A stretch of 64,000 nucleotides of DNA from Schmidtea polychroa (GCA_044892525.1 CM097887.1:72540001-72604000); one strand, 5' to 3'; counted from the stretch's first letter, positions 1 through 54,402 are shown. The notes: a model not told the origin generated them from the sequence alone. Made by a program: numbers and translations.

Positions 1-495
1 TTTCTGCCATTGTCAATACATTGATCTCCCCCAATCTCATGGGTGTTATTCCGACATCTGCATTATCATCTAACGATTTTCCGAATAGTTGTAGGTGAAA
101 TGGAGTTTCGTATGCTAATTTCTTTTTTAACTCTCTGATCTTTGTTGTTGGATGTACTTCTGTATCCTCAATGCTTTTGTCGGGATACTTGACTCGGATA
201 CGATACCTTTCCTGGGTATCTTGTGCCCACTCTTGGTTTCTCCATTTTCTAATAATTTGTTCTAGCTGTTCTGGGTACCATTCGTTATATTGTCGGTATT
301 CCTCAATCGCTTTCGCCATTTCTCTTAGATTGTGGATATTCTCTGATGTCTTTAGGATGATGTTAGCCAATGCTACTACTTGTCGTTTTTGATTTTTTGC
401 TCCCGTTGCTAAGATATCACCTAATTGTTTATATCTTTCCTTCTCTTCTCGTTCTCGAGCTTCCATCGCTTCCTCGCTGTCCATATCGGCATATT
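1..495 (-). CDS. Continuation of the polyprotein with a third ubiquitin-like domain (open to the window edge; not in the ORF track)
   Basis: ...YRIRVKYPDKSIEDTEVHPTTKIRELKKKLAYETPFHLQLFGKSLDDNADVGITPMRLGEINVLTMAE shows the ubiquitin/NEDD8 pattern (I.VK..K.IE..V.PT.KI..LK.KL...L...GK.L.D). Confidence 0.7.
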
Positions 496-779
496 CGCGT
501 TCTTTCTTTCTCATCGCATGAATATGTCTGGTTTCCGTTTCACTTTCGGACGTGACGTCCGTTTCGCTTTCCTCGTCGTCGTTCGTGTTCACCAATGTCT
601 GTTTCTACGAAAATTCCTTTCCTGACTTCCCACTCTTTATTTTCCGCATTCCACATCCTTTCCCAGGGAGTTCGTCTGCAAGATCTAGTACTCAGTTTCT
701 TTATTTTCCCTTGTAGTTCCTTTTCGTTTAACCATTGTTGATGAATTTCAATTATTTCTACTGATTTTTGGTATAGCGT

Positions 780-2879
780 TTACATCCTGTCGCGTATCTC
801 TTTCTGGTATGTCACATCTCTTGTTCGGAATTCGTCCATTGGCAATATTCTAATTATTTGATGATTATCCCACATTCCCATTTCGCTTAACGAGGTGTCG
901 TCCTCAGCCCGTAATATTATTTTGTCGTATATCATGACTACATTATCTATCATACCATCGCTACTCTCGCTTCGCACCTTTTCTGTTATCTCTTGGTTTA
1001 TCTTTGATACTAAGTCATCCACCGTACTTTGATTACTCATTTTTATTCGTCGTTTCTCCTCGTTTGGTAACCATATGGTTATTTCCAATCTCTGCGGTTG
1101 CGTTTCTTTTATTCTTCCATATTTGTGGATCAAATTTATGGTTCTCCAATCGCTCATTCTGAGCAATTCTGTATCTCGTAATCGGCTCATTAGTTCATGC
1201 ATAGCTGGAGTTCGTTTTGCTATGAGCAAATCCCAGTTGTCTTCAACTTGTTCTTGGATTTGTTTGATTAATTTATCTAGATTTCGTCGCAAAGTACATT
1301 GTTTTATTTGTTCTAATTTTAGCTTGATATTAAAATCGTATTCGGCCTTGGCGTCCTTCGCCCATTCGTAAACGTTGGCTGGTTGTTTCTCTTTATGCAA
1401 CTTCAATATTTGAGTTTCCCCTGGCCAGATCAATGCATCTATTAGGTGCATGTCTGGTTTAATTTGTTCTCCTTGGTATTGATATAGATACTCTTTCTTT
1501 CTCGAGCTGCCCCAATGTTCTCTTATCCAATCAAAAAGCTCGTCTGTGACTGTACTTTTTATCCATATTCTCTCGAGCTCTTTACTCGTTCCGATTTTTA
1601 TTACATAGCGTGTTGTCTCCGCTTGTTTCATTTTTTCCATATACTTCTTTATTATCGTTTTCTCCTCGCTTGGTATCAAGTCTTTTTCGTTTCTTTCTAG
1701 TTTCATTATCTTTTGTAAGAAGCGTTTATATGGTATAAGGTCGATGAACTCCTGGTTTCTTACTACCACTGGAAGTATTTCCTTTACTTGTTTTATCGCT
1801 TCCTCTCTTTCTTTTCTCAATTTCATCTCGATATTCTCATCTTCACTTTCACTTGTCACGTCGCTTTCACTCTCGTCTTCATCTGCTCCGATCTTCTCTC
1901 TTAGTTGTTCGATATTTTCATTTAACTGCAATGTTTCTCCACCCAGGCTACTCACGTAGTCCTCATCGTCATCTGTTGACAATACCTTCTTTGTCGTCCT
2001 CATCATATTAATTCGTAAATTTCTCATTCTTGGAACTTTCTTTAACTTTTTATTCTCGAGTATTGTTAGCTCTTCGGAGCCTAATTCCTGTACCATGTCA
2101 TGATTTAGATGATTACTCTGTTTCTCATTTTCGTCATTTTCCACTTCCGCCTCTGTTTTGCTTTTCTCGTGCTCTCTTTCGATTTTTTCTTTTATCTTTT
2201 TCCAAAATATTTTCTGAATTCTCTGATTACCTTTTAACGGTGTTGTTGGATTTTCCTTTTTCGCTTCTGTAATCGTTTCTTTCGGTTTCTCTGGTTCGAT
2301 CAATGGGACTACTCTTGGATTTTTCCCATAATTGTAGCAATATTGCTCTTTTATCTCCTTTACCATCCTCATCATATTTATTCGTAATGGTTGTTCTTGT
2401 CGCTGCTGAATTCGCTCTCTTTTTATTCTCTCTTCTTCAGCTTGTAGTCTCTGCCATTCTTGTGCATGTTGTTGTACTTCGTAATTGTTAAGATTCTCGG
2501 TGCTCCTCATCATACGTATATTCTGAGTTTGTTGTGGTGCTGGTTCTTGTCTTGGTCTCATCATTTGTTGCATCATTTGTTTCATTTGGGAAATTTCTTG
2601 CATCACATTCATTTGTTTTCCCTCACTGGGGTTACCTTGTCGTTGCTGATTTGGTGCATAATTATTATTTCGCTGTGGTGGTCGTTGTTGTTGGCCCCTT
2701 TCTCGGCAGTCTCTTGAGATGTGACCCGGCTGACCACAGTTAAAACATCCTCTCAATTGACATATGTTTTCCGTGTGTCCTCGTCGTCCGCACCTATTAC
2801 AATTGGCGTTTCTATAACAATCTCTATCCCAATGCCCTGGTTTACCGCATGTTCGGCATTGTTTGCTGTCGTTCGTATT
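780..2879 (-). CDS. Gag nucleocapsid (3 CX2CX4HX4C knuckles) plus long extension with two ubiquitin-like domains
   Basis: Reading through from 2879 gives CRTCGKPGHWDRDC, CNRCGRRGHTENIC and CFNCGQPGHISRDC. Ubl-like segments lie at about 1612-1390 (RYVIKIG...YQYQGEQIKPDMHLID) and 1092-838 (LEITIWLPNEEKRRIKM...STVDDLVSKI...LRAEDDTSLSEMGM). Confidence 0.75.
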   Translation of the reverse strand, partial: NTNDSKQCRTCGKPGHWDRDCYRNANCNRCGRRGHTENICQLRGCFNCGQPGHISRDCRERGQQQRPPQRNNNYAPNQQRQGNPSEGKQMNVMQEISQMKQMMQQMMRPRQEPAPQQTQNIRMMRSTENLNNYEVQQHAQEWQRLQAEEERIKRERIQQRQEQPLRINMMRMVKEIKEQYCYNYGKNPRVVPLIEPEKPKETITEAKKENPTTPLKGNQRIQKIFWKKIKEKIEREHEKSKTEAEVENDENEKQSNHLNHDMVQELGSEELTILENKKLKKVPRMRNLRINMMRTTKKVLSTDDDEDYVSSLGGETLQLNENIEQLREKIGADEDESESDVTSESEDENIEMKLRKEREEAIKQVKEILPVVVRNQEFIDLIPYKRFLQKIMKLERNEKDLIPSEEKTIIKKYMEKMKQAETTRYVIKIGTSKELERIWIKSTVTDELFDWIREHWGSSRKKEYLYQYQGEQIKPDMHLIDALIWPGETQILKLHKEKQPANVYEWAKDAKAEYDFNIKLKLEQIKQCTLRRNLDKLIKQIQEQVEDNWDLLIAKRTPAMHELMSRLRDTELLRMSDWRTINLIHKYGRIKETQPQRLEITIWLPNEEKRRIKMSNQSTVDDLVSKINQEITEKVRSESSDGMIDNVVMIYDKIILRAEDDTSLSEMGMWDNHQIIRILPMDEFRTRDVTYQKEIRDRM

Positions 2880-3611
2880 TCATCGATTATTAAAGTTGTT
2901 CCCATTATTTGAGTTGTTGCGTTCGTTGTTATTCCCGTTTGATCGTCCTTGTGGTGGTTTGAAAATTTGATGCGAACCTGGTATAAACTGATTCATCTTT
3001 GGTTCGTGATTGTTGTTATCTCCATTTTCCGTTTTCACCGTTGCTGATGCGATTCTTCCCTCCTCTTGCATGACATTCATTTGTGCTGGGAGGTGTAGTT
3101 CGCATCTTGTGGCCCAATCTATGGCCTCTTCTAGTGTTTTACACATTTGACATCCCACCGAGGCTCTTACCTCCTCTCGGCGTAGTCCTTCTATGAAATA
3201 ACCAATTAAATTTTCCTCCGGCAGGTTTCCGTTCATGGCTTTTTTTGCCAATCTTCGCAATTCGCTGGCGTATAACGTTATTGACTCGTTTGCTCTTTGT
3301 TTTCTACTTACCAGTTCACCTAACGCTTGATTTATTGGTTTGCTGGCTCCGAAGGTTTTCCTCAAAAATGTTTTGATGCTTTCCCAATTGTCTAACTTCG
3401 TATTCCTCTCTTTTGCTTCTAGGTATACTTCGAGTGCGCTATCGCACAAAAACAGAGGCATTCGTTTGCTAATTGCTTCCGCTGTCCATCCGCACACATC
3501 GATATAGACTTCAAAATTGGTTATGAACGTTGCCAACTTGTTCGCATTCCCGTTAAATGGTTCGCCTCTAAATTTTTCTTTATACTCGTCGGTTTTTACC
3601 GCATTCGTCAT
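2880..3611 (-). CDS. gag: Retrotransposon Gag capsid domain
   Basis: EPFNGNANKLATFITNFEVY...WESIKTFLRKTF, MHR-like RKQRANESITLYASELRRLA, and YFIEGL...TLEEAI. Confidence 0.85.
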   Translation of the reverse strand: MTNAVKTDEYKEKFRGEPFNGNANKLATFITNFEVYIDVCGWTAEAISKRMPLFLCDSALEVYLEAKERNTKLDNWESIKTFLRKTFGASKPINQALGELVSRKQRANESITLYASELRRLAKKAMNGNLPEENLIGYFIEGLRREEVRASVGCQMCKTLEEAIDWATRCELHLPAQMNVMQEEGRIASATVKTENGDNNNHEPKMNQFIPGSHQIFKPPQGRSNGNNNERNNSNNGNNFNNR

Positions 3612-4866
3612 GACTGGTTCTTGAAACTCTATTGTTTCTTTTAAATTTTCCAGCGATGTCGCTAAATTATGGACGGATAATTCTTCTGTTGACCCGGTTA
3701 GGTTGTTTGTTATATCGGATAGGCTTTCTCTGCTTCTAGATCGACTAGGGGTGTATCCGAGGTTTTCTTGGTCAAATGTTGGTACTTGATTTGTTCTTCT
3801 TGCTTCTTGTGATATTCCTCTTTGCTGTTTTATGGACCGTCCTCTTCTGAGCTGTTCTAGTTCGTCTCCTGAAAATAATACGTCTCTTGACTTACTTGAG
3901 GATCTGAGATTTGGTTTCTCCGTGATTCCTTCTTACGCCTCTTTATCGTCTCTTATGGATTTCTCGGCAATTAGCGGCTGCTGACTTGAGTGAATTCGGT
4001 TCTGTCGGTGTTCCGAGTCCTTGGCAAATGGTTGTTAATGCTATGAGACGTCTTCCGTTCTTGGAATCTTCGGGTTGTGTTACTCCTACTGAGCGGGTTC
4101 TGGATTGGTTATTTCTGGTTGGTCGTTGATTTCTTCGAATTCCTTTGTGTAGGTTCTGGATTGGCTTGATTGACTGGGTTGGTTTGCTATCTAAAATGAA
4201 AAAATGATCTCGTGTTGCATCTGCTTACACGACTTCATCATTCTTTCTGCAACATTCAAACACAGACACCGTTTAGGGCCTCTGTTATGCTTTTCTTTAT
4301 TTCCCCATACAATTCCTCGTGGATTATAGTTACCCATCAACCCATAGTTTTCGTCGATTTTAAATTATCTATTTGGGGTAGTAATAATTATCTATATGGT
4401 CGTATCAATTATCTATAGTTATCATTTATAATATCGATAGGTCGTTGTCAGTTACTGCTTATCACCCCCCATATCCTTTTACGCGGTTCCGCTATTTTAC
4501 TTAATCTTTCGTCTCTGTTTCCCTTTACTCGGTTCTACTCTGAACCAAAAATCAAATTCGTTTATCCGGTTTAAACCCACAAAAAAAATCTGTAGAACTC
4601 CGTCTACTCACCTGGGGTCCCTTTAATTAATTAAAATTTTTCTTCTTTTATTCATCATCTAATCACACTTATTCTTTGTTTTCATTAACCTTAATTCATT
4701 TTCCTTTTTTGTTTCTTTGTTTCCACTAAAAGAATTTTACCATTATCTTCTACGAGCTCGTTTAATCCTTTCCAAATTCAAATTCCTGTATCTGAATTCA
4801 GTTCGTCTCTAGCTAGCTTAATATTTTACCTCATTATTAACTTAAATACTATCCAATCATTTTCTA

Positions 4867-5690
4867 GGCCTTTACGACTGGCTGGCACTTTTCAACAGCT
4901 CAATCTTCATCATCTCCGAACTGGCTGGACTTTTCACAGCTCAGTTTTTAATTGTTCCTGACCGGCTGGACTTTTCCAACAGCTCGGCCTTACGACTGGC
5001 TGGCACTTTTCAACAGCTCAATCTTCTTCATCTCCGAACTGGCTGGACTTTTCACAGCTCAGTTTTAATTTTCCTGACCGGCTGGACTTCTCGACAGCTC
5101 GGCCTTACGACTGGCTGGCACTTTTCAACAGCTCAATCTTCTTCATCTCCGAACTGGCTGGACTTTTCACAGCTCAGTTTTTAATTTTTCCTGACCGGCT
5201 GGACTTTTCGACAGCTCGGCCTTACGACTGGCTGGCACTTTTCAACAGCTCAATCTTCTTCATCTCCGAACTAGCTGGACTTTTCACAGCTCAGTTTTTA
5301 ATTTTTCCTGACCGGCTGGACTTTTCCAACAGCTCGGCCTTACGACTGGCTGGCACTTTTCAACAGCTCAATCTTCTTCATCTCCGAACTGGCTGGACTT
5401 TTCACAGCTCAGTTTTAATTTTCCTGACCGGCTGGACTTCTCGACAGCTCGGCCTTACGACTGGCTGGCACTTTTCAACAGCTCAATCTTCTTCATCTCC
5501 GAACTGGCTGGACTTTTCACAGCTCAGTTTTTAATTTTTCCTGACCGGCTGGACTTTTCGACAGCTCGGCCTTACGACTGGCTGGCACTTTTCAACAGCT
5601 CAATCTTCTTCATCTCCGAACTGGCTGGACTTTTCACAGCTCAGTTTTTAATTTTTCCTGACCGGCTGGACTTTTCCAACAGCTCGGCCT
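4867..5690. repeat. Hierarchical tandem array: 7 units of ~117 bp, each with 3 copies of a ~22-nt core
   Basis: Units start at 4867, 4986, 5101, 5218, 5336, 5451 and 5568 (lengths 119, 115, 117, 118, 115, 117, 118). Core is CYGGCTGG(C)ACTTTTC..ACAGCTC, present 21 times. No ORF. Confidence 0.95.
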
Positions 5691-6270
5691 TAATATCTCC
5701 GATTCTGCATGCTTCCACTTCTTTCCTATCTTTATTCTAGACTGTCCTTTTCCTATTTTTACTTTTTATTTGTCGATCTAATCTGTGCCGCTTGAGAATG
5801 TTTCCCCTTTCCCCCCTTGCTCAAAACGCAAAACGATCGCATTGATCCATTTCTACATTGGTATGGTGATCAGCCATACCGCAGAAACTTTTCAATATTC
5901 GCGATGGTACCTCGCCTTACATCTCTTACTCGGGGTGATCGGTTATCCCTTCCCAACCGGTTTTCGTGTATCGTACCTCCCGAAGGTGGCTCGGTTTATT
6001 CCCCTTTTAATCCTATGTTGGGACTAGTTCCACTTTATGCAAATCACTTAACTTATAGATAATCTCTCTCCATGGTGAAAATTAATCATAAAATTACTGA
6101 GATTCACAACAAAAATGAACACACAAAGATTTCTATTCGTAATTCAGCATTGCGCCACATACAATATATTATATTACTAGAAAATTGTTGATACATTAAA
6201 TAAAAGTTAAAAGAAACGTTCAATCAAATTGTCAGTTAAATCAATTCTTCCATCGAGTGATGATCGCATC

Positions 6271-6750
6271 TTAATTGAAATATACCGTGTGCTTCTCCTT
6301 TATCACGCACGCACACAAAGAACAATGGGTTAAGTCAACGACGCACTCATCACAATGACTTAGATGTCCGCAAGGTAAGATCAGCATTCTGCCGGGCCGC
6401 GTCTTACAGATGTTGCACGTTCTTAATGCTGCGGCTTTTTCCTCAATCAAGGCTCGAATTCTTTTAGTCAGAGTCTTTACCTGTCCGCGTATCCTTACGT
6501 ATTCTGTATTTAAATCGGGATCGTCGAGACGTTGTTGAAGCCACTGGTAGTGCAGAGACAAGTCGGTGTCGGTATTGGCTGCTCCCAGTTTATCGGTTAA
6601 GAAGTTTTGTTTCGATATTAGTGGGGCGTTATGGCGTTGTTGTTCTACCCTCTCTATTTGCTTCAGTTTCTCTTTTAATGTCCTTATCGAATCATTTTCT
6701 ATGTCGATGAATCTACTTAGCTGTTGTAGATGTTTTCTAGCTTCCGACAT
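6271..6750 (-). CDS. Element-borne coiled-coil + C-terminal C3HC4 RING protein (IAP/RNF34/MDM2-type RING), 159 aa, intact
   Basis: CNIC-x11-CGH-x3-CDEC-x6-CSLC followed by 13 residues ending TVYFN. ATG start and stop are intact, and a TTTTTTTAG acceptor lies 2 nt upstream of the ATG. Confidence 0.85.
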   Translation of the reverse strand: MSEARKHLQQLSRFIDIENDSIRTLKEKLKQIERVEQQRHNAPLISKQNFLTDKLGAANTDTDLSLHYQWLQQRLDDPDLNTEYVRIRGQVKTLTKRIRALIEEKAAALRTCNICKTRPGRMLILPCGHLSHCDECVVDLTHCSLCACVIKEKHTVYFN

Positions 6751-7209
6751 ATCTAAAAAAAATGTGTTGTTATTATTTGTTCTTACTGGTATTACTAGTA
6801 ATATTATTATGTTTGTATTTAATATTCGTTTGATTTTTATTTGTTATTGTTTCTAACTTTTGCGTTTTATTCAATCTTTGAAATTCCCCTCGTGTTGTCA
6901 CTTTAATCATTTAATTTTATTATCCTTACTTCCCCTTGTTCCCCCTTTTTAATAAATAAATTCAGATTAGTAATAAAAACTTAGTTAATTCCCGTTTTCT
7001 TTTCCCATCATACTCAATCATGTTCCTTCATACTCATTTAGACTCATTTATATTCATGCATGCTCTAGGTCAAACACAAACAGTTCGTATAATCATTCTA
7101 TTGCAAATACCGATTCGTTTCCGTCCCGATTCTATTTCGTTATCATGATTAATTGAGTTAACACATCATAGCACAGTAACAGGCAATCAAAGCAAATCGA
7201 ATTGACAAT

Positions 7210-7227
7210 ATCCCGGCTGAGCCCCCA
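7210..7227 (-). promoter_or_regulatory. Primer binding site, tRNA-Pro type
   Basis: Minus strand reads TGGGGGCTCAGCCGGGAT, a 16/18 match to the classical tRNA-Pro PBS TGGGGGCTCGTCCGGGAT, located 7 nt inside the LTR end CCCAACA. Confidence 0.85.
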
Positions 7228-7414
7228 AAAATCATGTTGGGCGTAGGTGGGGAAGAGAAAAGTATACATGCATTTCTATCACGCCTATCAAGCCTCATCA
7301 TTTCGTTTAGACGCTCCCCATACATACTCCACATGATCATTCGCATATTCCCACGTATGAGCCCGTGGTGATGTTCCACGTTGGTGCTGCTCACACAGGT
7401 CGGAAAGAGTTAGC

Positions 7415-7489
7415 AGGTGAGCCCCTGCCTTAGGACTACTCCTAACCCTTTTCTCGGTACGGGTCCTACGGTGCCTTAGAAGGACTTAC
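7415..7489 (-). promoter_or_regulatory. Conserved LTR box with a 5' splice donor (GTAAGTCCTT ... GAGTAGTCCTAAGGNAGGGGCTCACCT)
   Basis: The same two blocks in the same order, about 190-250 nt from a CCAACA LTR end, occur at 35846-35924 (+) and 53447-53520 (+). Confidence 0.75.
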
Positions 7490-7811
7490 CCATGCTTCAC
7501 GCATCATTCGGTCCACCCTGGTCCAAAGGGGACGACATTCAAGCTTCTACTACTCCTTCAGGATCCTCCACTCATGAGATTCAATCATAGCCAATCATAC
7601 ATATAATTAACGCAATCGGAAAACAAGCGAACAGCTGTATTAGAACAAAACATCAAAATACACTCAAAATTAGGTAAGTAGACACAAAACATTAACGACT
7701 TGTACAAAATAATGTCACTCCTTCGAATTCGTTCATGGTAGTAGGGGAATCGAGACTTGAGAGAAAACTCACTGTGAGAATGCTTCTCCTTCCGCGAGCA
7801 TCTCGTCGATG

Positions 7812-8369
7812 TCAACGGGCAACCGGTATTGGCCCGAGTATTGGAGCCAAGATAGGGTCCGAGGGTCCACCAGACATAGGCCGATAACCAGAGAGAACGG
7901 GGGCGGGAATTGGTGGCAATTGTGGGCCATGCCCCTTGCAATTAGTTACTGACGATGATTCAGCTGACTGGTGATGCCCGGGGAACACATTAGTCCCCTC
8001 TTGTATCGGGTATTCGCGAACTCGCTTCGCTATCTCTGCTTCGGAGTATACTTTATGCAGCGCCTCTGATTGGGCTTTTATGGTTAGCCGCTGGCATCTA
8101 CTCTCTTCCAGGAGACTGTCACGGCAGTGCTCCAGGCGTAGAATCTTACTCTTCTCCTCTTTCATCTGTGGTGGGGAGAACCACGTTCCCTCATAGAGGT
8201 CAATTCTCTTCTTTAATTCCCCAATGTACAAGTGCAACTGTGCGATGTCTGCATTTTTGTCCGAACATGAGAAGCATGGACGGAGATCTTTTCTGGACTG
8301 GATCGGTGTAGTCATCTGAAGATAAAGAAGGTTTCCATTAAGGCGGGGTTGCGAACAGCTTTCCCTCAT
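7812..8369 (-). CDS. ORF-X copy 1: unknown LTR-encoded protein (CxxC, coiled coil, EGTWFSP motif); likely start at Met 8315
   Basis: PCFSCSDKN...IDLYEGTWFSPPQMKE...LEHCRDSL...QSEALHKVY...NVFPGHH...CKG. Homologous to four other copies in the window. A CTTCAG acceptor lies directly before ATG 8315. Confidence 0.7.
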   Translation of the reverse strand: MRESCSQPRLNGNLLYLQMTTPIQSRKDLRPCFSCSDKNADIAQLHLYIGELKKRIDLYEGTWFSPPQMKEEKSKILRLEHCRDSLLEESRCQRLTIKAQSEALHKVYSEAEIAKRVREYPIQEGTNVFPGHHQSAESSSVTNCKGHGPQLPPIPAPVLSGYRPMSGGPSDPILAPILGPIPVAR

Positions 8370-8524
8370 GATTATTTAGTTCCCTCAACATACAATTTCG
8401 CTGACCCTCGACCGGTCTCCGATCGGAGACGGTCCTTAAAACCATTATTTACTACGACCACTCATATTCACATCAACGTAAACCATGCAAGATTAGAAGA
8501 AAACGGGAGTCATAAATAAAACAC

Positions 8525-8617
8525 TTTATTATATTTGCTATGTACTGTATATCTCCTACATGTTGATGATTTATCTAAGTTATTCTGCTAATTTTCGGGA
8601 AAACCTTCGCTTTTATA
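8525..8617 (-). promoter_or_regulatory. Putative LTR TATA box (8617-8610) and polyadenylation signal (8530-8525)
   Basis: TATAAAAG followed about 80 nt downstream by AATAAA on the element strand. Motif match only. Confidence 0.45.
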
Positions 8618-11054
8618 ATTATAACATTTAAATTTTCCGTTGTTTGTTATCGGTGACAATTTTATTCAATATCGTGACCTATTGAGAGTCGTTGGGTCTG
8701 AATGTCACAGGGAGTGAAATGACTATCGCTTGGAGTACTCGACCTCCTCGTACCGGAAATGAGAATTTAAAAAAACTCGTCGAGAATTTTAATTATTACT
8801 TCGAATTATCTAAAAGTTCGTTTAAATTAGCGGCGTTAGTGTAGTCATGGAAACCCCAACTATTCATTCCTACTCTGCATGTATGTGAGTATGCATATAT
8901 TTCACTGTGTTAAGATTATAGTATGCCGGTATTACTCTTACCCACGGCTAGACAATTCTCGTTGAAATTAATTTCACTAAATGATTTCGATGTCGCTGAC
9001 TATGTTCGCACACACCGTCTCACACTGTTATATCATTACGTCATTTTCCTACTCGAGTTACTACGGTGGATCAGCTTGCTTGTGTGCATCATTGGACATA
9101 CTGATGATTATGCATGGCGTGGATACCTGATTTGATACTAGAAATATTCAGTTAGATCTATCAACACAGTGTTTCGAATTTGGAGTTTTATTATCGCCTT
9201 GCCAAGTTGGAATTATGAGTGAGTGATTATAAGGTCTACTCGATGTTTATCTCTGCTAATCTCTATCAAGCGCCGTTACTGGACCTTCATGGCCTCGTTA
9301 TCCGGGTATTGGAGGTGCTCAGGCGAATGCTTATCGGTCGTCTACGACTAATTTCCAGCAGGCCCGGACTAAAAGATAATTTCCCTAGTTTGCTGACCTC
9401 AGATTTTCTCAAGGCTGTCGTGAATATTTACATTCACTATCGGATGATTTTCATGTGTCGTATAGGTTCTACTTTTAGCGACGATAAGGCCTGTCAAGAA
9501 TGATTGTAGAGTCTGATTAAAGCCGAGAGGATGGATGTACTCGCTAATGCTCTAGTGGTTCAAATCTCTGAAGAAAACTAGAGACAGTTTATACAGACCT
9601 GTCTGGGATTTTCCTTTGCAGCCGAAAACTATGATCCCTTCATAATCAATTCACCGAAATTCGAAAGTTTAAAACAATAATCATGTCGAATTGGAGCATA
9701 ATGAAGTACGGCAGTACGTGGAAATGAAGATTCTGTCTCATGTCTTTTCCGGAAAGTTTTAAACGGAGTTATTATTTGTATCAATTGTCGCAATTCTGTC
9801 TCTTCTCACCCCTCCTGACTCACACAAGCACAGCATGCATCGCTGCCGCCGCATTTGGACCGTCAGGAAGGACGATTCCATCCCCTCAGATTTCTATCTT
9901 CTTCATCGAAAACAATCATCGCAAATAAACAATAAATTCGTCCGACAATTCAATATTAACGAAATATTATTATTATATAAAATAGTTAGTTACCCGGCGA
10001 CCACGCCGCCTGAAACTCGAACATGATACAAAGTCGGAATGATCCTCGTACACTTCATTTTCCATTCTCAGTGGGATTTAAATTCTCGATTCGATGTCTT
10101 TATTTTCATTACTCGTCTACGAGTATCATCTAGCCCATTCATTCGCGTTTCTGCATCATGTCCGAATTCCAGACGACATCGTCGCCGGTCGCATGGAGAG
10201 AGAGAACATCTTTATAATCAAATAGAAAAATTTATTAAAATTAAATTATTTTGTTCATTCCTTTTTATATAAAAACAAAATTAAAATATGCATCATACTT
10301 ACAATACGTTTCCTTCGAGAGTATTGGAAAAATATCGGTTGAAGTTTTCTGTTCCCAGGTGAATAATATTAATGCTCTGTGGAAATCTCGATAACTGTAT
10401 GAATAGTGTTTCTTGAGTATAGTCCTTGCGAATTGATTTAATGAAGTTTGCTGTAGAGTTTGGTTAAAAAGTGGTCGTTAACAAATTAAAATTTTACCTG
10501 TAGAGTTTGGTTAAAAAGTGGTACTCTACAGATATTTTCCGTTTCTTTTATATTATTTTCTGTCCAATCAGGACGCGACTTGCGTGTAATATTATTATTT
10601 ATTACTATTTTTATGTTTTTTAATGCAATAAGGTATATTTTAATGACTTTTCTCTATTTTTATTATCATTTTATTTATTTTTCTATTTTTTATTATTTCC
10701 CTCCTGTTTTTCCTATGACTTTATTGTTTTTTGGTTATAGTCTAATTTTTTGTTTTAATTAGTTTATGTATTTATTTGATAATGATTTATTTTTATTTTA
10801 TTTCCTAATTTCTGGTTTATTTTTCTTACATTTATTATTTTATTTCCTTATGCTATTATGTGTGGTGCGTTATTTTCTTTTCTCATCTTGTTTTTTCATC
10901 TTTTATTGTTTTCATTGGTTATTGGTCATTCCTTTTATTTCTGTTATGTTTATCTAATTTTATTTGTTCTTCTATTTTTCGCGCTTTTCGTGCAATTTAT
11001 TTTATCCCCCTTATTTATTCTTAACCGGTTTTGCAATACTCTCGAAGCTTGGCC

Positions 11055-11059
<5 letters not shown>

Positions 11060-14117: not shown

Positions 14118-14404
14118 TTATTTTCGAATGTTTAATTAAATCATTTTTGATTCAGTGTTTTATTGATTTTGAAAACTATTAAGTACATTGAAATATTGGT
14201 TGTATTTATTATGACAAAATTTCAAAAATAAAGTTTTATATTTTATATACCATTTTCTATCAGTTTACAATATTTTTGACCGATATGCCAAAAACAAATT
14301 CCAAATCTAAAAATAAAAATTCATTGGTTTCGGTTTAGTTTTGTGGTTGGTTTTTTAATTACATTGAATATTTTTTGATGAGGTATCATTGTATAAATTT
14401 TCAG

Positions 14405-14963
14405 TAAACCAGGTGAATGTTTAACTGTGGAAGGGCTTTGTCACGATGGGCCAATTATGTCTGTCAGCACGCAAAAATATTCATCGTCTGATCATGACTG
14501 CAAGGATTTGTTTCTCACGTCGTCTGTCGATTATTCAGTCAAATTGTGGTCGAATTCAGAAAACTATTCATCAAATTTGATTTTTACCCTTGATGATCGT
14601 AGTGATTACGTATACGATGTTGATTGGTCACCAATACATCCTGCAGTATTCTGTTGCGTGGACGGATCAGGGAAATTGGAGGTTTGGAATTTCTTGCGCA
14701 GTGTTGAGGTAAATAAAATTTTATTTGTGATATATATATCACAATATTTATCAGAAAAAAAATCTAACTTTTGCCCAGGGTCATAGTTTTATAACATCCT
14801 GGCGATATATATATATATATATATATATCAGCGGAATGTCATAGGGTAGTTTTCAACGCAAAATTTTCACATCAGGGGGGTTAATCCTCCCATTGTATGA
14901 TTTTCTATAGTAAATATCTTTTCAAGAGAGTTTGGGCGCGTGATTGCTTTCTCAATAATTCAA

Positions 14964-52334: not shown

Positions 52335-53702
52335 TTGTCATCATCAGGGCCGACCACTTCAAACTCTTCTTTTTCCAGTCATTTTCTCTTCCATTTACAC
52401 CTCTTTCTCCACGAAACTTACTGCGTACCAGCTTTGACCGATCGATATTTGTCATCATTCTCTTTTTCTTTTAGACCATGTCATCGAATTCAACTAGAAA
52501 ATCAGTAATCACGCCCTGCTTTTCTTGTACCAACAAGAATATGACGATCTTAGACGATGCAGGACGAGATTGGATTTTTGAAGTGAAAGATAAACTATCT
52601 GGAGGGGACATGGTTTTTCCTGCCTAGATGAAAGAAATGCATCGAAAACTGACAAGAAGCGAGCATTGCCGGGATAGTCTGATCAAATAGACTCATCAAG
52701 GAGCAATAAGAAGCGCTCCACAAGGTCTATGTTCAGCCTGTATTCACCAGGAAGATAGTAGTATCCCAATCGCAGAAGCCGACAATGTCTATCCTATTAA
52801 CCATCATCGCCAGAGTTATAAGGACATAAGTCGGAAACGGCTTGTAAAGGGTATGTGGAGACCACTCTCTCTCCCACATCCTCCGAGATCATCATCACGG
52901 ATACCAGTCAGGTGTCACCGAAATCCGCTCAACAGCCAATGGCAGACAAACCACCCGTCGTCACGGAGAAGCCAAAAAGGAAGCAGTTGACGCGCGCCGA
53001 GTGTACCAAACGATGGAAGATGCGATAAGCCGAGGAAGAGTTTCATCTGGCGATCAACAGTGCTATGGCGGCCGCTGATGTAATCAACGCCATGAGCAAC
53101 AATCCGTCCGATAAGTTTCGTATAATACCGCCCACGGGTACACCGTGGGAAGAAGATCTCAATGATTGGTTCGATCTGGACACTCTTTTAAAGGATACCG
53201 AAGCCAGCGGGTTTTGAGGAAATGATCCCAGTAGCGACCTGGTCAGCATAAACTGAATTTTGATTTTGTTCTTTCAGTGATTCTACTCTGTCTGTTTATC
53301 AAATGTAAATATTACTGAGTTAAAATCTTCAAATTTTCTTTTATTCACGGGGTGGGTGTTCTGTAGAAACGTTTTGTTTTCCTACAAGGTTTCGAGAAGC
53401 TGATTAGTGAATAGTTGCCGTCAACCATGATAATACCTGTTGCGACGTAAGTCCTTTTTTCGGTAGTCGGGATTGTGAAGTAGAAAAATCAAGAAGTCGT
53501 CCTAAGGTAGGGGCTCACCTGATCCACGAGTTTCACCGAGGTGTTACAGTATCAACATGATATTAATCATGGGTGCTTAGTCGTTGAGAACAATCATTCG
53601 AAGTCGAACTAGTATGCGACATTTGAAAATTGTTGTGATGGTAAGAGACATTCATCCCCTAGGTGTTCGCTAGTAATGAGTCGACCTAGTGGCGCTCCAA
53701 CA
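52335..53702 (+). mobile_element. 3' portion of a third giant-type LTR ('LTR C')
   Basis: Same order as LTR A (acceptor-ORF-X, donor box, CCAACA end at 53702). The 5' boundary is uncertain. Confidence 0.6.
52478..53217 (+). pseudogene. ORF-X copy 4 (longest, ~245 codons, with stops and frameshifts; missed by the ORF track)
   Basis: MSSNSTRKSVITPCFSCTNKN...KINYLEGTWF..MKE..EHCRDSL..EALHKVY..DNVYP.NHH..CKG..KPKRKQLTR..PWEEDLNDWFDLDTLL..*. A TTTTAG acceptor lies 3 nt before the ATG. Confidence 0.8.
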
Positions 53703-53998: not shown

Positions 53999-54402
53999 AT
54001 GAATAACCGACCACAATCCCTGATATCGTGCTTCACGTATTCTGACCAGAACGAGTCCATACGCACGTTGAACAAAAAAATCCGACTCCTGGAAGCGAAA
54101 ATCGACCGCATGGAGGGGACATTTTTTACTCCACTCCAGATGAAAGTTATCAGAAGATTAATCGCCTAGAGCGCTACCGTGACAGCTTGATCACAGAGAG
54201 CAGGCCATAGAGGACCTTGATACAGAAGCAATCTCAGGCTCTGTATCAGGCCTACACAGCACGGGAGCTCGAGACTCGCATAACTGGATTCAGGGTTGCC
54301 AACAAAGCCAACGTCGTCCCAAATCACCACCTTATACCCCCAGTATCTTGTGCCGGTTGTTATTCGTTGGCGACTTCTTCGGTTCCAACTCCGGTTAACT
54401 AA
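53999..54402 (+). pseudogene. ORF-X copy 5 (frameshifted)
   Basis: MNNRPQSLISCFTYSDQN..KIDRMEGTFFTPLQMK / LERYRDSL..QSQALYQAY..NVVPNHH..SCAGC. A pyrimidine-rich acceptor precedes the ATG. Confidence 0.75.

Follow-up and report, generated by a model that had tools for sequence, protein, structure and literature searches.

Conserved splice-like signals, leader hairpins and a likely non-AUG Gag start in a Burro-type giant gypsy family of Schmidtea polychroa

The first 11,059 nucleotides of a 64,000-nucleotide stretch of Schmidtea polychroa DNA (GCA_044892525.1 CM097887.1:72540001-72604000, hereafter the window) hold a long LTR, a RING gene, a tandem array and gag, and raise the question of how a giant retroelement with such extra genes is expressed. 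Burro elements rank with the largest retroelements so far described, and hitherto only their protein domains have been listed; here we offer coordinates for Burro-type expression, namely a donor, several acceptors, a near-cognate start, a hairpin array and two small selected genes. On balance we favor a reading in which the Burro-type family works like a complex retrovirus, with one short LTR leader spliced to acceptors just before each accessory gene and a giant polyprotein that starts at ACG.

Organization of the element and its likeness to Burro

Positions 1-11059 cover the 5' portion of a damaged copy, truncated on its 3' side, of a Burro-type giant gypsy family, which is present in high copy number in the S. 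polychroa genome. The features located in this region are the following:

7235..11059, (-): 5' LTR, 3,825 nt, TG...CA with short inverted ends; a (TA)n microsatellite adjoins
10297..10302, (-): GTAAGT resembling a donor, upstream LTR; some copies have a comparable site at a similar distance, less regular than 7489
8315-7815, (-): LTR ORF, 167 aa here, with N-terminal coiled coil (predicted dimer), arginine-rich motif and acidic tail; AG immediately 5' of its ATG
7636..7641, (-): conserved AAT(A/C/T)A hexamer, ~410 nt upstream of the PBS; could be a poly(A) signal or a TATA-like box
7484..7489, (-): candidate major splice donor GG/GTAAG near the LTR 3' end; GTAAG in 40/43 aligned copies
7227-7210, (-): PBS for tRNA-Pro, 7 nt past the LTR, matching tRNA-Pro(TGG) gene 3' ends
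6271..6754, (-): conserved acceptor AG (6754-6753) and RING gene (ATG 6750; 159 aa; Pfam match)
4867..5692, (-): hairpin array, 117-bp x 7, giving 21 stem-loops on the element sense strand
4540..4611, (-): second donor/acceptor pair, gag leader; acceptor in most copies, donor in fewer
4191..4228, (-): donor and acceptor exactly 38 nt apart in 33/33 copies; mini-intron or two separately used sites
3921..3923, (-): ACG in RNC-ACG-G context, likely start of long Gag; first in-frame AUG at 3611
2706..3923, (-): Gag, with Ser/Arg-rich N-terminal extension, capsid and three CCHC knuckles; stop at 2882 here
1380..1622, (-): putative Ubl domain 1, dN/dS 0.03-0.10; fold support moderate
831..1100, (-): putative Ubl domain 2, dN/dS 0.05-0.08
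2..208, (-): putative Ubl domain 3, Pfam ubiquitin E 0.01, past the stop at 782 and a frameshift near 606-621

The sequence-only reading had described a giant gypsy LTR element with a 3.8 kb LTR and a tRNA-Pro PBS, and each of these features was confirmed. Other copies are bounded on each side by LTRs of the 7235-11059 type, the two LTRs of a pair lying 26-30 kb apart with 98.7-99.9% identity; the LTR ends are the same as in the window, the copies themselves lie within (TAA)n or (TTA)n runs, and the total length of three such copies is about 26, 28.5 and 30 kb. The PBS is complementary to the 3' end of the genome's own tRNA-Pro(TGG) genes and was detected in 42/44 sampled RING-bearing tiles, 244-646 nt upstream of the RING ATG. 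The anticipated extension to the left yielded pol, with Pfam matches to RVP, RVT_1, RT_RNaseH, Integrase_H2C2 and rve in the Ty3/gypsy order of protease, RT, RNase H and integrase after gag, but the 3' LTR was not found in the 40 kb left of the window, this copy being broken off about 14.5 kb left of it.

Beyond the left edge of the window, the polyprotein continues with a Bcl-2-like region (weak Pfam row, E 0.018), Env, PR, RT, RH, IN and ankyrin, and a single open frame of 4,724-4,817 codons (Gag-Ubl-Bcl2-Env-Pol-Ank) was present at 49/150 scored places. Env lies in frame between the Bcl-2-like region and the protease (Pfam Monjiviricetes_fusion, E 5e-58), and the PR-RT interval, which in Burro contains a dUTPase-like region, holds a spacer of fitting size with no Pfam row at E 0.05. 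MATH belongs to a separate downstream full TRAF gene outside this frame, and a search of the window and tiles L001-L020, covering five copies, gave no BIR.

Burro1/GYPSM1 of Schmidtea mediterranea and a Burro-like element of Dugesia tigrina (Jurka 2007, Grohme 2018) are described, in section 7 of PMC6431247, as near 30 kb long, with multi-kb LTRs and a single frame of ~4,800-4,900 aa running from a Gag with CCHC to integrase and ankyrins. Judged by this description and by layout, Burro shares with the window family a length of ~26-30 kb, multi-kb LTRs, retrotrans_gag, three CCHC, a Ubi/SUMO-like region that in the window family is putative, Bcl-2-like, a mononegavirus-type fusion protein between Gag and PR, PR-RT-RH-IN, ankyrins, MATH, tandem repeats and accessory ORFs; unlike Burro1, the window family has MATH in the separate TRAF gene and no BIR in five copies. 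The same section of PMC6431247 already lists a Ubi2/SUMO-like motif, MATH, BIR, Bcl-2, tandem repeats and accessory ORFs, and proposes a role in "apoptosis and ubiquitination", so that the novelty first claimed for a ubiquitin-toolkit combination was overstated. It names no stand-alone RING gene, LTR protein, non-AUG start, hairpin array or splicing. Furthermore, the literature searched did not contain an IAP-type RING gene that lacks BIR and follows the PBS, an acceptor 2 nt upstream of its ATG, an invariant ACG opening Gag, 21 covarying leader hairpins or an LTR protein that carries an arginine-rich motif and is predicted to dimerise. Platyhelminthes GAG-ENV-POL errantiviruses (PMC13524379) are likewise flatworm Ty3/gypsy elements with an envelope between gag and pol, and a word search of the main text gave no mention of accessory genes or splicing. 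Burro elements are abundant and PIWI-controlled in planarians, according to PMC8532177.

Leader hairpins and the LTR-encoded protein

Each stem-loop of the array is composed of 5 bp, a bulged A, 4 bp and a GAAAAGU-type loop, with a folding z of -6.4. Pairing is retained on the sense strand only (340/341 versus 185/341 at one pair). With the two G-C pairs flanking the bulge fixed by the search, 97.4% of cells were paired and 5/9 pairs had changed on both sides, the number of double-change pairs being not above shuffles (161/500). Three copies of the window family bear other repeat units, and a sister lineage has no such array and a different 131-bp repeat in 2/4 copies. Because the 7489 donor lies upstream of them and the acceptors of the gag leader lie downstream, the hairpins would be present only in unspliced RNA, where they may bind a protein that marks the unspliced genome for export or packaging. 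The LTR protein, predicted to be dimeric and arginine-rich, is our tentative first candidate for such a binder, and the Gag zinc knuckles are the second. Both the RNA structure of the array and the non-AUG start of Gag had been overlooked in the sequence-only reading.

The LTR-encoded ORF noted earlier is real and family-wide, reaching 240-260 aa in 29/40 copies (~253 aa typical); in the window it is shortened by a ~225-nt deletion. Its core has a dN/dS of 0.02-0.07. The predicted homodimer scored 0.61 against 0.00 for the best control, with pLDDT of at least 79 and at least 92% of contacts shared between runs, on a mark reached by 21/30 solved microbial pairs, 0/23 microbial single chains and 17/29 eukaryotic pairs, but only 1/7 without an older solved relative. 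Homologues elsewhere bear long Arg-rich runs, and 1/16 matched Pfam REV at E 0.0013, below the cut-off and of a kind that can arise from arginine content alone, with no such match for the window family's own protein. The LTR protein gave no fold match, and inspection by eye revealed no clear leucine-rich export signal.

The acidic tail fits a transcription activator equally well. The protein might thus be a DNA-binding activator, like foamy-virus Tas or HTLV Tax, with the array serving at the DNA level as an enhancer or insulator comparable to that of the gypsy leader, an alternative to which we assign an appreciable minority chance. The predicted parallel coiled-coil dimer, the basic motif, the acidic-hydrophobic tail and weak bZIP neighbours in the ESM Atlas (0.77) are consistent with it, and it may hold for the protein even with the array acting as RNA. 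For the array itself, G-U pairs kept on the sense strand only, together with compensatory changes, argue for RNA and against a DNA palindrome.

Complex retroviruses are among the closest known parallels. HIV-1 has Rev/RRE, HTLV has Rex/RxRE and foamy virus has Tas, and MMTV sag and HIV nef lie in U3. Like them, the window family has an ORF within its LTR and, by prediction, a single donor serving many acceptors, an oligomeric protein rich in arginine and structured RNA limited to unspliced transcripts; it differs from these viruses in its Ty3/gypsy domain order and its single Gag-Env-Pol frame. In contrast to Rev/RRE, the LTR protein has no above-threshold sequence or fold relation to Rev, and 21 short hairpins take the place of one branched element. 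In its fullest and speculative form, which we consider rather unlikely as a whole, this parallel would mean that a Ty3/gypsy lineage independently evolved the full complex-retrovirus circuit: a dimeric arginine-rich LTR protein would bind the bulged hairpins to export or package the unspliced genome, one LTR donor would feed spliced accessory genes (BIR-less IAP RING, TRAF and others) that keep the host cell alive, and a non-AUG start would throttle the 4,800-residue polyprotein. If the LTR protein and hairpins do form an export switch, Rev-type regulation would have arisen outside Retroviridae, which bears on the origins of complex retroviruses, and the hairpin-protein pair would offer a natural analogue of MS2-type RNA tags.

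The RING gene and the putative Ubl domains

The RING ORF reported between PBS and gag is intact (6750-6274, 159 aa; Pfam zf-C3HC4_3, E 1e-7). Its product combines an N-terminus of its own, helical and ~105 aa long, with a C-terminal IAP-type C3HC4 RING whose closest solved relatives are the IAP RINGs of cIAP1, cIAP2 and XIAP (PDB 6hpr, 3eb5, 4ic2). With these ligases it shares the C3HC4 spacing, the PCGH motif, the position at the protein end and the conserved aromatic; it differs from them in lacking BIR, UBA and CARD, in its N-terminus and in having no Arg after the last Cys (0/39 readable copies). Since BIR is absent, its sequence identifies it as an IAP-type RING but not an IAP. All eight RING ligands are kept in 37/40 copies, Tyr157 near the C-terminus is invariant in 19/19, and dN/dS is 0.10-0.17. 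Such a RING would likely dimerise via its aromatic tail.

Together with the full TRAF and the Bcl-2-like domain of the element, the IAP type of this RING points to cell-death or immune signalling. It is a serious possibility, if somewhat short of an even chance, that the RING joins these two modules in acting on cell-death or immune signalling of the host, either as a weak ligase or by partnering host IAP RINGs, instead of acting on the Gag Ubls. The BIR-less RING would represent a mobile-element version of the IAP tail, and a handle on how parasites of stem-cell-rich animals treat cell death.

The initial proposal was instead that an E3 ligase is paired with three Ubl-like domains fused to Gag, acting on host ubiquitin/SUMO defence or particle turnover. 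The fusion in one frame stands, although in the window this frame is broken by stops at 2882 and 782 and by the frameshift near 606-621; Gag itself was confirmed (Pfam Retrotrans_gag, E 2.5e-11, and three CCHC knuckles). The Ubl folds are moderately supported by prediction: ESM Atlas neighbours of domains 1-2 are Rad60-SLD/ubiquitin at 0.90, there are weak Pfam and Foldseek rows for beta-grasp families, the sister homologue of domain 2 gave weak UBX/OTU1_UBXL/PI3K_rbd rows, and a beta-beta-alpha-beta pattern is visible in a poor AlphaFold model (pLDDT 40), whereas searches of Pfam and PDB and with hhalign and Foldseek returned no significant match. As for the pairing, the RING and the Ubls both occur throughout the family, are conserved in its sister and evolve under strong purifying selection, and the retained ligands and the Ubl-like signal of domains 1-2 are compatible with joint action. 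Nothing links the two, however: they are separate genes with different histories (the window RING differs from two copies at pS 0.44, though LTR ORF pS to the same two copies is merely 0.06-0.09), none of the three Ubl domains ends in Gly-Gly, and the RING is IAP-type without Arg after the last Cys. We therefore regard the pairing as improbable.

Expression signals and unity of the family

Donors and acceptors are conserved by position. The 7489-type donor lies 230-280 nt upstream of the PBS in 40/43 copies, an AG with a T tract lies 2 nt upstream of the RING ATG in 43/44 copies compared to 64/5,837 other ATGs, and among the accessory ATGs checked all but that of the last ORF have an AG 0-6 nt upstream. 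These copies share descent, and such counts represent non-independent events. The earlier suggestion of one donor with several acceptors holds for the signals, which are conserved far beyond chance; no matching junction was seen among the joints listed. As had been surmised, the accessory genes look spliced: the extra proteins of the family are likely made by splicing, as in complex retroviruses, with the 7489 donor predicted to be joined to acceptors at the RING gene, in the gag leader, at the TRAF and coiled-coil genes further downstream, and at the LTR ORF of the 3' LTR. All splicing and translation steps proposed here rest on conservation.

The ACG at the head of Gag has a Kozak context and is invariant in 35/35 readable copies; of 43 conserved four-fold columns only 2 are invariant, and this is one of them. 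Downstream of it dN/dS is 0.24-0.31, compared to 0.72-0.84 upstream; an in-frame stop lies just 5' of it in 29/33, and between the acceptor and the first AUG 31 copies hold 3 ATGs against 229 expected. The capsid gene, and with it the giant Gag-Ubl-Bcl2-Env-Pol protein, likely starts at ACG and not at AUG. Ribosomes scanning the AUG-free leader would initiate at ACG 3923 to give long Gag, and those that leak past it would reach AUG 3611 and make a short form. Viral precedents for non-AUG initiation are ACG in Sendai C' and AAV VP2 and CUG in MLV glyco-Gag; a near-cognate codon, strong context, an AUG-free leader and long and short forms by leaky scanning are common to these cases and, by prediction, to ours. 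In contrast to them, the codon would open the sole Gag-Env-Pol frame of a gypsy element, and is ACG in one lineage and ATT in its sister (AAA-ATT-G at the equivalent position, 4/4 copies).

Planarians also use spliced-leader trans-splicing, which would likewise place acceptors upstream of ATGs. Host trans-splicing that resolves the accessory genes operon-like, in place of cis-splicing from the LTR leader, would account for the AGs 0-6 nt upstream of accessory ATGs in a flatworm, but the strong donor conserved before the PBS argues against it. Furthermore, the flatworm spliced leader ends in AUG; given the conserved 2-nt spacing, this AUG and the RING ATG would lie in different frames, and it would also override an ACG start. 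We consider this explanation distinctly improbable.

The LTR, PBS, RING gene, hairpin array, LTR ORF and gag form a single unit that is conserved and evolves under purifying selection, in constant order in most copies, as first proposed; of the 40 tiles that extend far enough, 34 have capsid downstream of RING. The alternative that RING ORF, array and gag are nested insertions of independent origin, or neutral passengers, is refuted: RING gene, array and gag travel together, the order is fixed in most copies and in the sister, dN/dS is far below 1 and synonymous sites are saturated, even though parts are mosaic between copies, 6/40 tiles show RING without a downstream capsid match and 2/44 lack the PBS. 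The exceptional tiles checked contain deletions or other insertions. The sister lineage, with a capsid ~50% identical, shares the PBS, the RING gene (25%), the LTR ORF and the three Ubl homologues (41-46%). Within S. polychroa, this lineage is closer to Burro1 than the window family is, because its frame includes MATH and it carries an IAP gene with both BIR and RING.

Layout and linkage of the element family

This analysis partly confirmed what a sequence-only reading had observed at this locus and partly supported its interpretation. The stronger news appears to lie in the putative expression machinery, comprising conserved leader-splicing signals, a near-cognate start of Gag in two lineages, covarying hairpins and two small genes under selection. 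The parts of the window copy are as follows.

Features of the window copy, in element order (all on the minus strand)
11059-7235, minus: LTR, TG...CA, beginning at a (TA)n run
7227-7210, minus: PBS, 18 nt after a 7-nt spacer, complementary to the genome's own tRNA-Pro genes
6750-6274, minus: RING gene, 159 aa
4867-5692, minus: tandem array, 117-bp x 7
after a leader, minus: gag, encoding capsid and three CCHC knuckles
left of the window, in order: fusion glycoprotein, protease, RT, RNase H, integrase, ankyrins, TRAF gene, coiled-coil ORFs

The LTR with a tRNA-Pro PBS that had been proposed was thus confirmed, the primer of these elements being tRNA-Pro(TGG), whose pattern has 2,164 matches genome-wide. 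Genes for this tRNA form a long tandem array with a 475-bp period (genome tile L103; G000:C1:130.90-130.95 Mb). The copy extends about 14.5 kb to the left of the window and then stops without a 3' LTR. Stops at 2882 and 782, together with a frameshift near 606-621, disrupt it, and there are further breaks beyond. Its fusion glycoprotein matches Monjiviricetes_fusion (E 5e-58), and the TRAF gene, composed of RING, zf-TRAF and MATH, is split into two frames here and encodes 462 aa in three other copies. Both the TRAF gene and the coiled-coil ORFs are located beyond pol, at 7774-9212, 6514-7578 and 6007-6342 of the adjoining left-hand tile L002, all on the minus strand.

The element is flanked on either side by WD40 exons on the opposite strand (window 14397-14786, plus; L002:3924-4235, plus), the former matching cytoplasmic dynein intermediate chain (E 4e-21), and the copy likely sits antisense within an intron of that gene. 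A target-site duplication was unreadable, the window copy being truncated and the other copies lying in microsatellites. Two decayed relics of the LTR ORF (the reading frame inside the LTR), with 32-43% identity, are found at 52508-52807 and 54014-54330 (plus) and stem from older LTRs.

Both LTRs are present in three other copies, 98.7-99.9% identical, 26-30 kb apart and within AT-rich microsatellites, indicating that the family moved recently. The loci G000:C1:72.65-72.70 Mb and C2:107.32-107.37 Mb, where three LTR ORFs recur together with two RING genes every 26.4 kb, are tandem elements with shared LTRs. Places matching the third ubiquitin-like (Ubl) stretch that follows gag fall within open frames of 4,724-4,817 codons in 49 of 150 scored.

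A search with the RING protein yielded 150 scored matches among 3,551 candidates, with identity down to 44%, and linkage was assessed in 44 places spread over this identity range. The PBS lies 244-646 nt upstream of the RING start in 42 of the 44, and of the 40 tiles that extend far enough, 34 have a capsid after the RING. The RING frame is open in 40/44, with a dN/dS of 0.10-0.17 and synonymous saturation in 401 of 780 pairs; positive selection on the RING is ruled out by a dN/dS below 0.2. The LTR ORF is present in 40/44 tiles, measuring 240-260 aa in 29 of these 40, and its first ~105 codons have a dN/dS of 0.02-0.07. Ubl stretches 1 and 2 are constrained like the capsid (0.03-0.10). A search for BIR domains furthermore led to a sister lineage in the same genome, with capsid identity of about 50%. 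This lineage shares the PBS and carries, at the corresponding position, a 160-aa RING gene (25% identical over its full length), along with a homologue of the LTR ORF and counterparts of the three Ubl-like stretches. This recurrence, together with the order of RING, PBS and capsid in most sampled places, excludes the possibility that the RING ORF, the array and gag are independent nested insertions. LTR, PBS, RING, array, LTR ORF and gag are one unit in the family.

Divergence is nevertheless uneven along this unit. In mosaic copies (window 6274-6750 compared with tiles L009 and L017), the RING differs at a pS of 0.44 and the LTR ORF, 1 kb off, at only 0.06-0.09; likewise, capsids are 91-97% identical in copies whose RINGs are only 44-46% identical. 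This mismatch points to frequent recombination of leader modules among copies.

Splicing signals and the start of Gag

The claim that a donor with several acceptors generates spliced accessory genes held for the signals, whose conservation makes splicing likely. Of 43 copies, 40 retain a donor at 7489. The RING ATG is preceded, at a distance of exactly 2 nt, by a T-tract AG in 43/44 copies, compared with 64 of 5,837 other ATGs. An AG also lies 0-1 nt upstream of the LTR-ORF ATG (27/29) and 0-6 nt upstream of the ATG in the TRAF and coiled-coil genes, and a further donor and acceptor are exactly 38 nt apart (4228-4191) in all 33 copies. Most simply, every acceptor would receive a short leader that ends at 7490, and the LTR ORF would be expressed from the 3' copy of the LTR. 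The AAT(A/C/T)A motif conserved at 7641 is a candidate poly(A) signal or TATA-like box. Contigs of four sequencing runs (three presumed to be RNA, none recorded as RNA) aligned to window 1-10600 were neutral on splicing: among 15 of their 45 joints, 0 had splice-type ends on the element strand.

An in-frame stop at 3935 precedes the open gag frame, whose first AUG is at 3611. Of 36 copies, 35 are readable at 3923, and every one of them has an ACG there, each time preceded by a purine at -3 and followed by G at +4. Neighbouring codons vary, and invariance is seen in only 2 of 43 conserved four-fold columns; as the gag copies are related, these counts are not independent trials. The ~105 codons after the ACG have a dN/dS of 0.24-0.31, compared with 0.72-0.84 for the 20 codons before it, a region that contains a stop in 29/33. 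Furthermore, between the 4191 acceptor and the first AUG in frame (~590 nt), 29/31 copies are devoid of ATG in any frame, with 3 ATGs seen against 229 expected from shuffles. The spacing between acceptor and ACG takes all three phases among copies, which rules out a spliced upstream frame joined to Gag. In the sister lineage, AAA-ATT-G occupies the like place in 4/4 copies, and the AUG-free run spans about 90 codons. With different near-cognate codons in two lineages, a non-AUG start of Gag is therefore likely despite the kinship of the copies, and we hold it with considerable confidence.

The hairpin array and the LTR protein

The tandem array of the window copy folds, as RNA on the element strand, into 21 predicted hairpins. 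In each ~39-nt subunit a bulged A separates a 5-bp stem from a 4-bp stem, which is capped by a GAAAAGU-type loop (z = -6.4), and three or more such hairpins occur in 33/44 sequences. Base pairing over 341 units is preserved when the sense strand is read and breaks down on the antisense (340 vs 185 at one pair, 339 vs 252 at another). Among 56 distinct units, 97.4% of cells are paired and 5 of 9 pairs have changed on both sides; with the two bulge-flanking pairs held constant in the search, the covariation score was matched by 0/500 shuffles and the count of double-changed pairs by 161/500. The array sits downstream of the 7489 donor and upstream of the acceptors in the gag leader, and would therefore be kept only in unspliced RNA. 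It has no Rfam family, with one chance row in 3900-11059, and a hammerhead reading was ruled out by eye. The array is absent from the sister lineage, and in three tiles (L017, L053 and L054) the place of the 39-nt hairpin between RING and gag is taken by other short repeats that have small inverted arms. The gag leader also holds, at window 4360-4420, an AT-rich repeat of 21 nt (ATAGATAATT core) that is nearly unchanged in both lineages.

The full LTR protein, modelled from another copy, is predicted to comprise a long N-terminal coiled coil, a disordered middle, an Arg/Lys-rich helix start and an acidic tail. Two copies of residues 8-115 gave a homodimer score of 0.61 against 0.00 for the best control (contacts agreeing at least 92%, pLDDT at least 79), on a scale where the mark for a dimer was reached by 21/30 solved pairs and 0/23 single chains from microbes, by 17/29 eukaryotic pairs but by only 1/7 of those without an older relative; the protein is a predicted dimer. 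A homologue search with the LTR ORF returned nothing; PDB sequences and viral folds contained no match to the protein, nor did the Atlas above 0.85. A profile search recovered 16 distant homologues from other data sets (P0002-P0017), several with long Arg-rich runs and one touching Pfam REV below cut-off (E 0.0013). Most are gene models fused to unrelated host domains, probably through solo-LTR exons drawn in via the strong acceptor. Our first guess is that the LTR protein might play a Rev/Rex-like role on the hairpins; that it is instead a Tas-like activator is nearly as likely. We consider a full Rev-like circuit improbable.

Ubiquitin-related parts and the relation to Burro

The closest solved relatives of the RING are the C-terminal RINGs of cIAP1, cIAP2 and XIAP (E 1e-7 to 7e-6), with whose tail its end aligns in register, including an invariant Tyr; a homologue search with the RING ORF returned only one generic RING. 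All eight ligands are kept in 37/40 copies. An Arg after the last RING Cys, present in cIAP1, is the "linchpin" that activates E2-ubiquitin; in contrast, this residue in the element is Ala, Lys, Val, Thr or Ser, and Arg in 0 of 39 readable copies, and the protein has no BIR. We infer that the protein dimerises and is either a ligase, probably a weak one, or a partner for the host's own IAP RINGs, acting alongside the element's TRAF and Bcl-2-like modules.

The claim that Gag is fused to three Ubl-like domains stood as regards three conserved stretches, for which a ubiquitin-like fold is moderately supported. A beta-beta-alpha-beta pattern appears in a poor AlphaFold model (pLDDT 40), Pfam and Foldseek gave weak beta-grasp rows below significance, and the Atlas neighbours of the first two stretches are Rad60-SLD and ubiquitin (0.90, 144-146 shared features). 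No significant sequence or profile match was obtained: a homologue search among longer proteins found none, phmmer against PDB nothing relevant, and hhalign against host ubiquitins a probability below 7%, barely above reversed controls. Foldseek with the model gave no row at E 0.001, its weak rows being enriched in SUMO, ubiquitin and RBD folds, and the VIA-align output was taken up by a helical linker. The suggested pairing of an E3 RING with the Gag Ubls is unsupported, as nothing links them and the Ubls are without Gly-Gly ends.

The proposal of a complex giant LTR retroelement with a novel combination of parts stood for the giant element and lost the novelty of its ubiquitin "toolkit", which is largely anticipated in print. 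The description of Burro/GYPSM1 (PMC6431247) gives an element of more than 30 kb with a 4,873-aa frame containing Gag, three CCHC, MATH, a Ubi2/SUMO-like motif and Bcl-2. It places Env between Gag and Pol, lists ankyrins and a BIR as well as accessory ORFs and tandem repeats, and proposes interference with apoptosis and ubiquitination. A literature search of titles and abstract openings found no RING gene, Rev-like protein or ACG start in a gypsy element, and the matched passages of PMC13524379, PMC8532177, PMC11410931 and PMC5408684 do not mention a RING gene, splicing, an ACG start, hairpins or an LTR protein. Because the Burro1-like sister lineage carries a RING ORF, this leader ORF may already be annotated in the figures or supplements of Grohme 2018, Repbase entries or the supplements of PMC13524379.

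Compared with Burro1 through its published description, the layout of the window's family is alike, but MATH resides in the separate TRAF gene and no BIR was found in five copies; the family is therefore Burro-type and distinct from Burro1, and its layout makes a planarian host likely. The sister lineage is closer to Burro1, and its tiles (L091-L102) contain MATH within the big frame and a 392-393-aa BIR-RING IAP gene.
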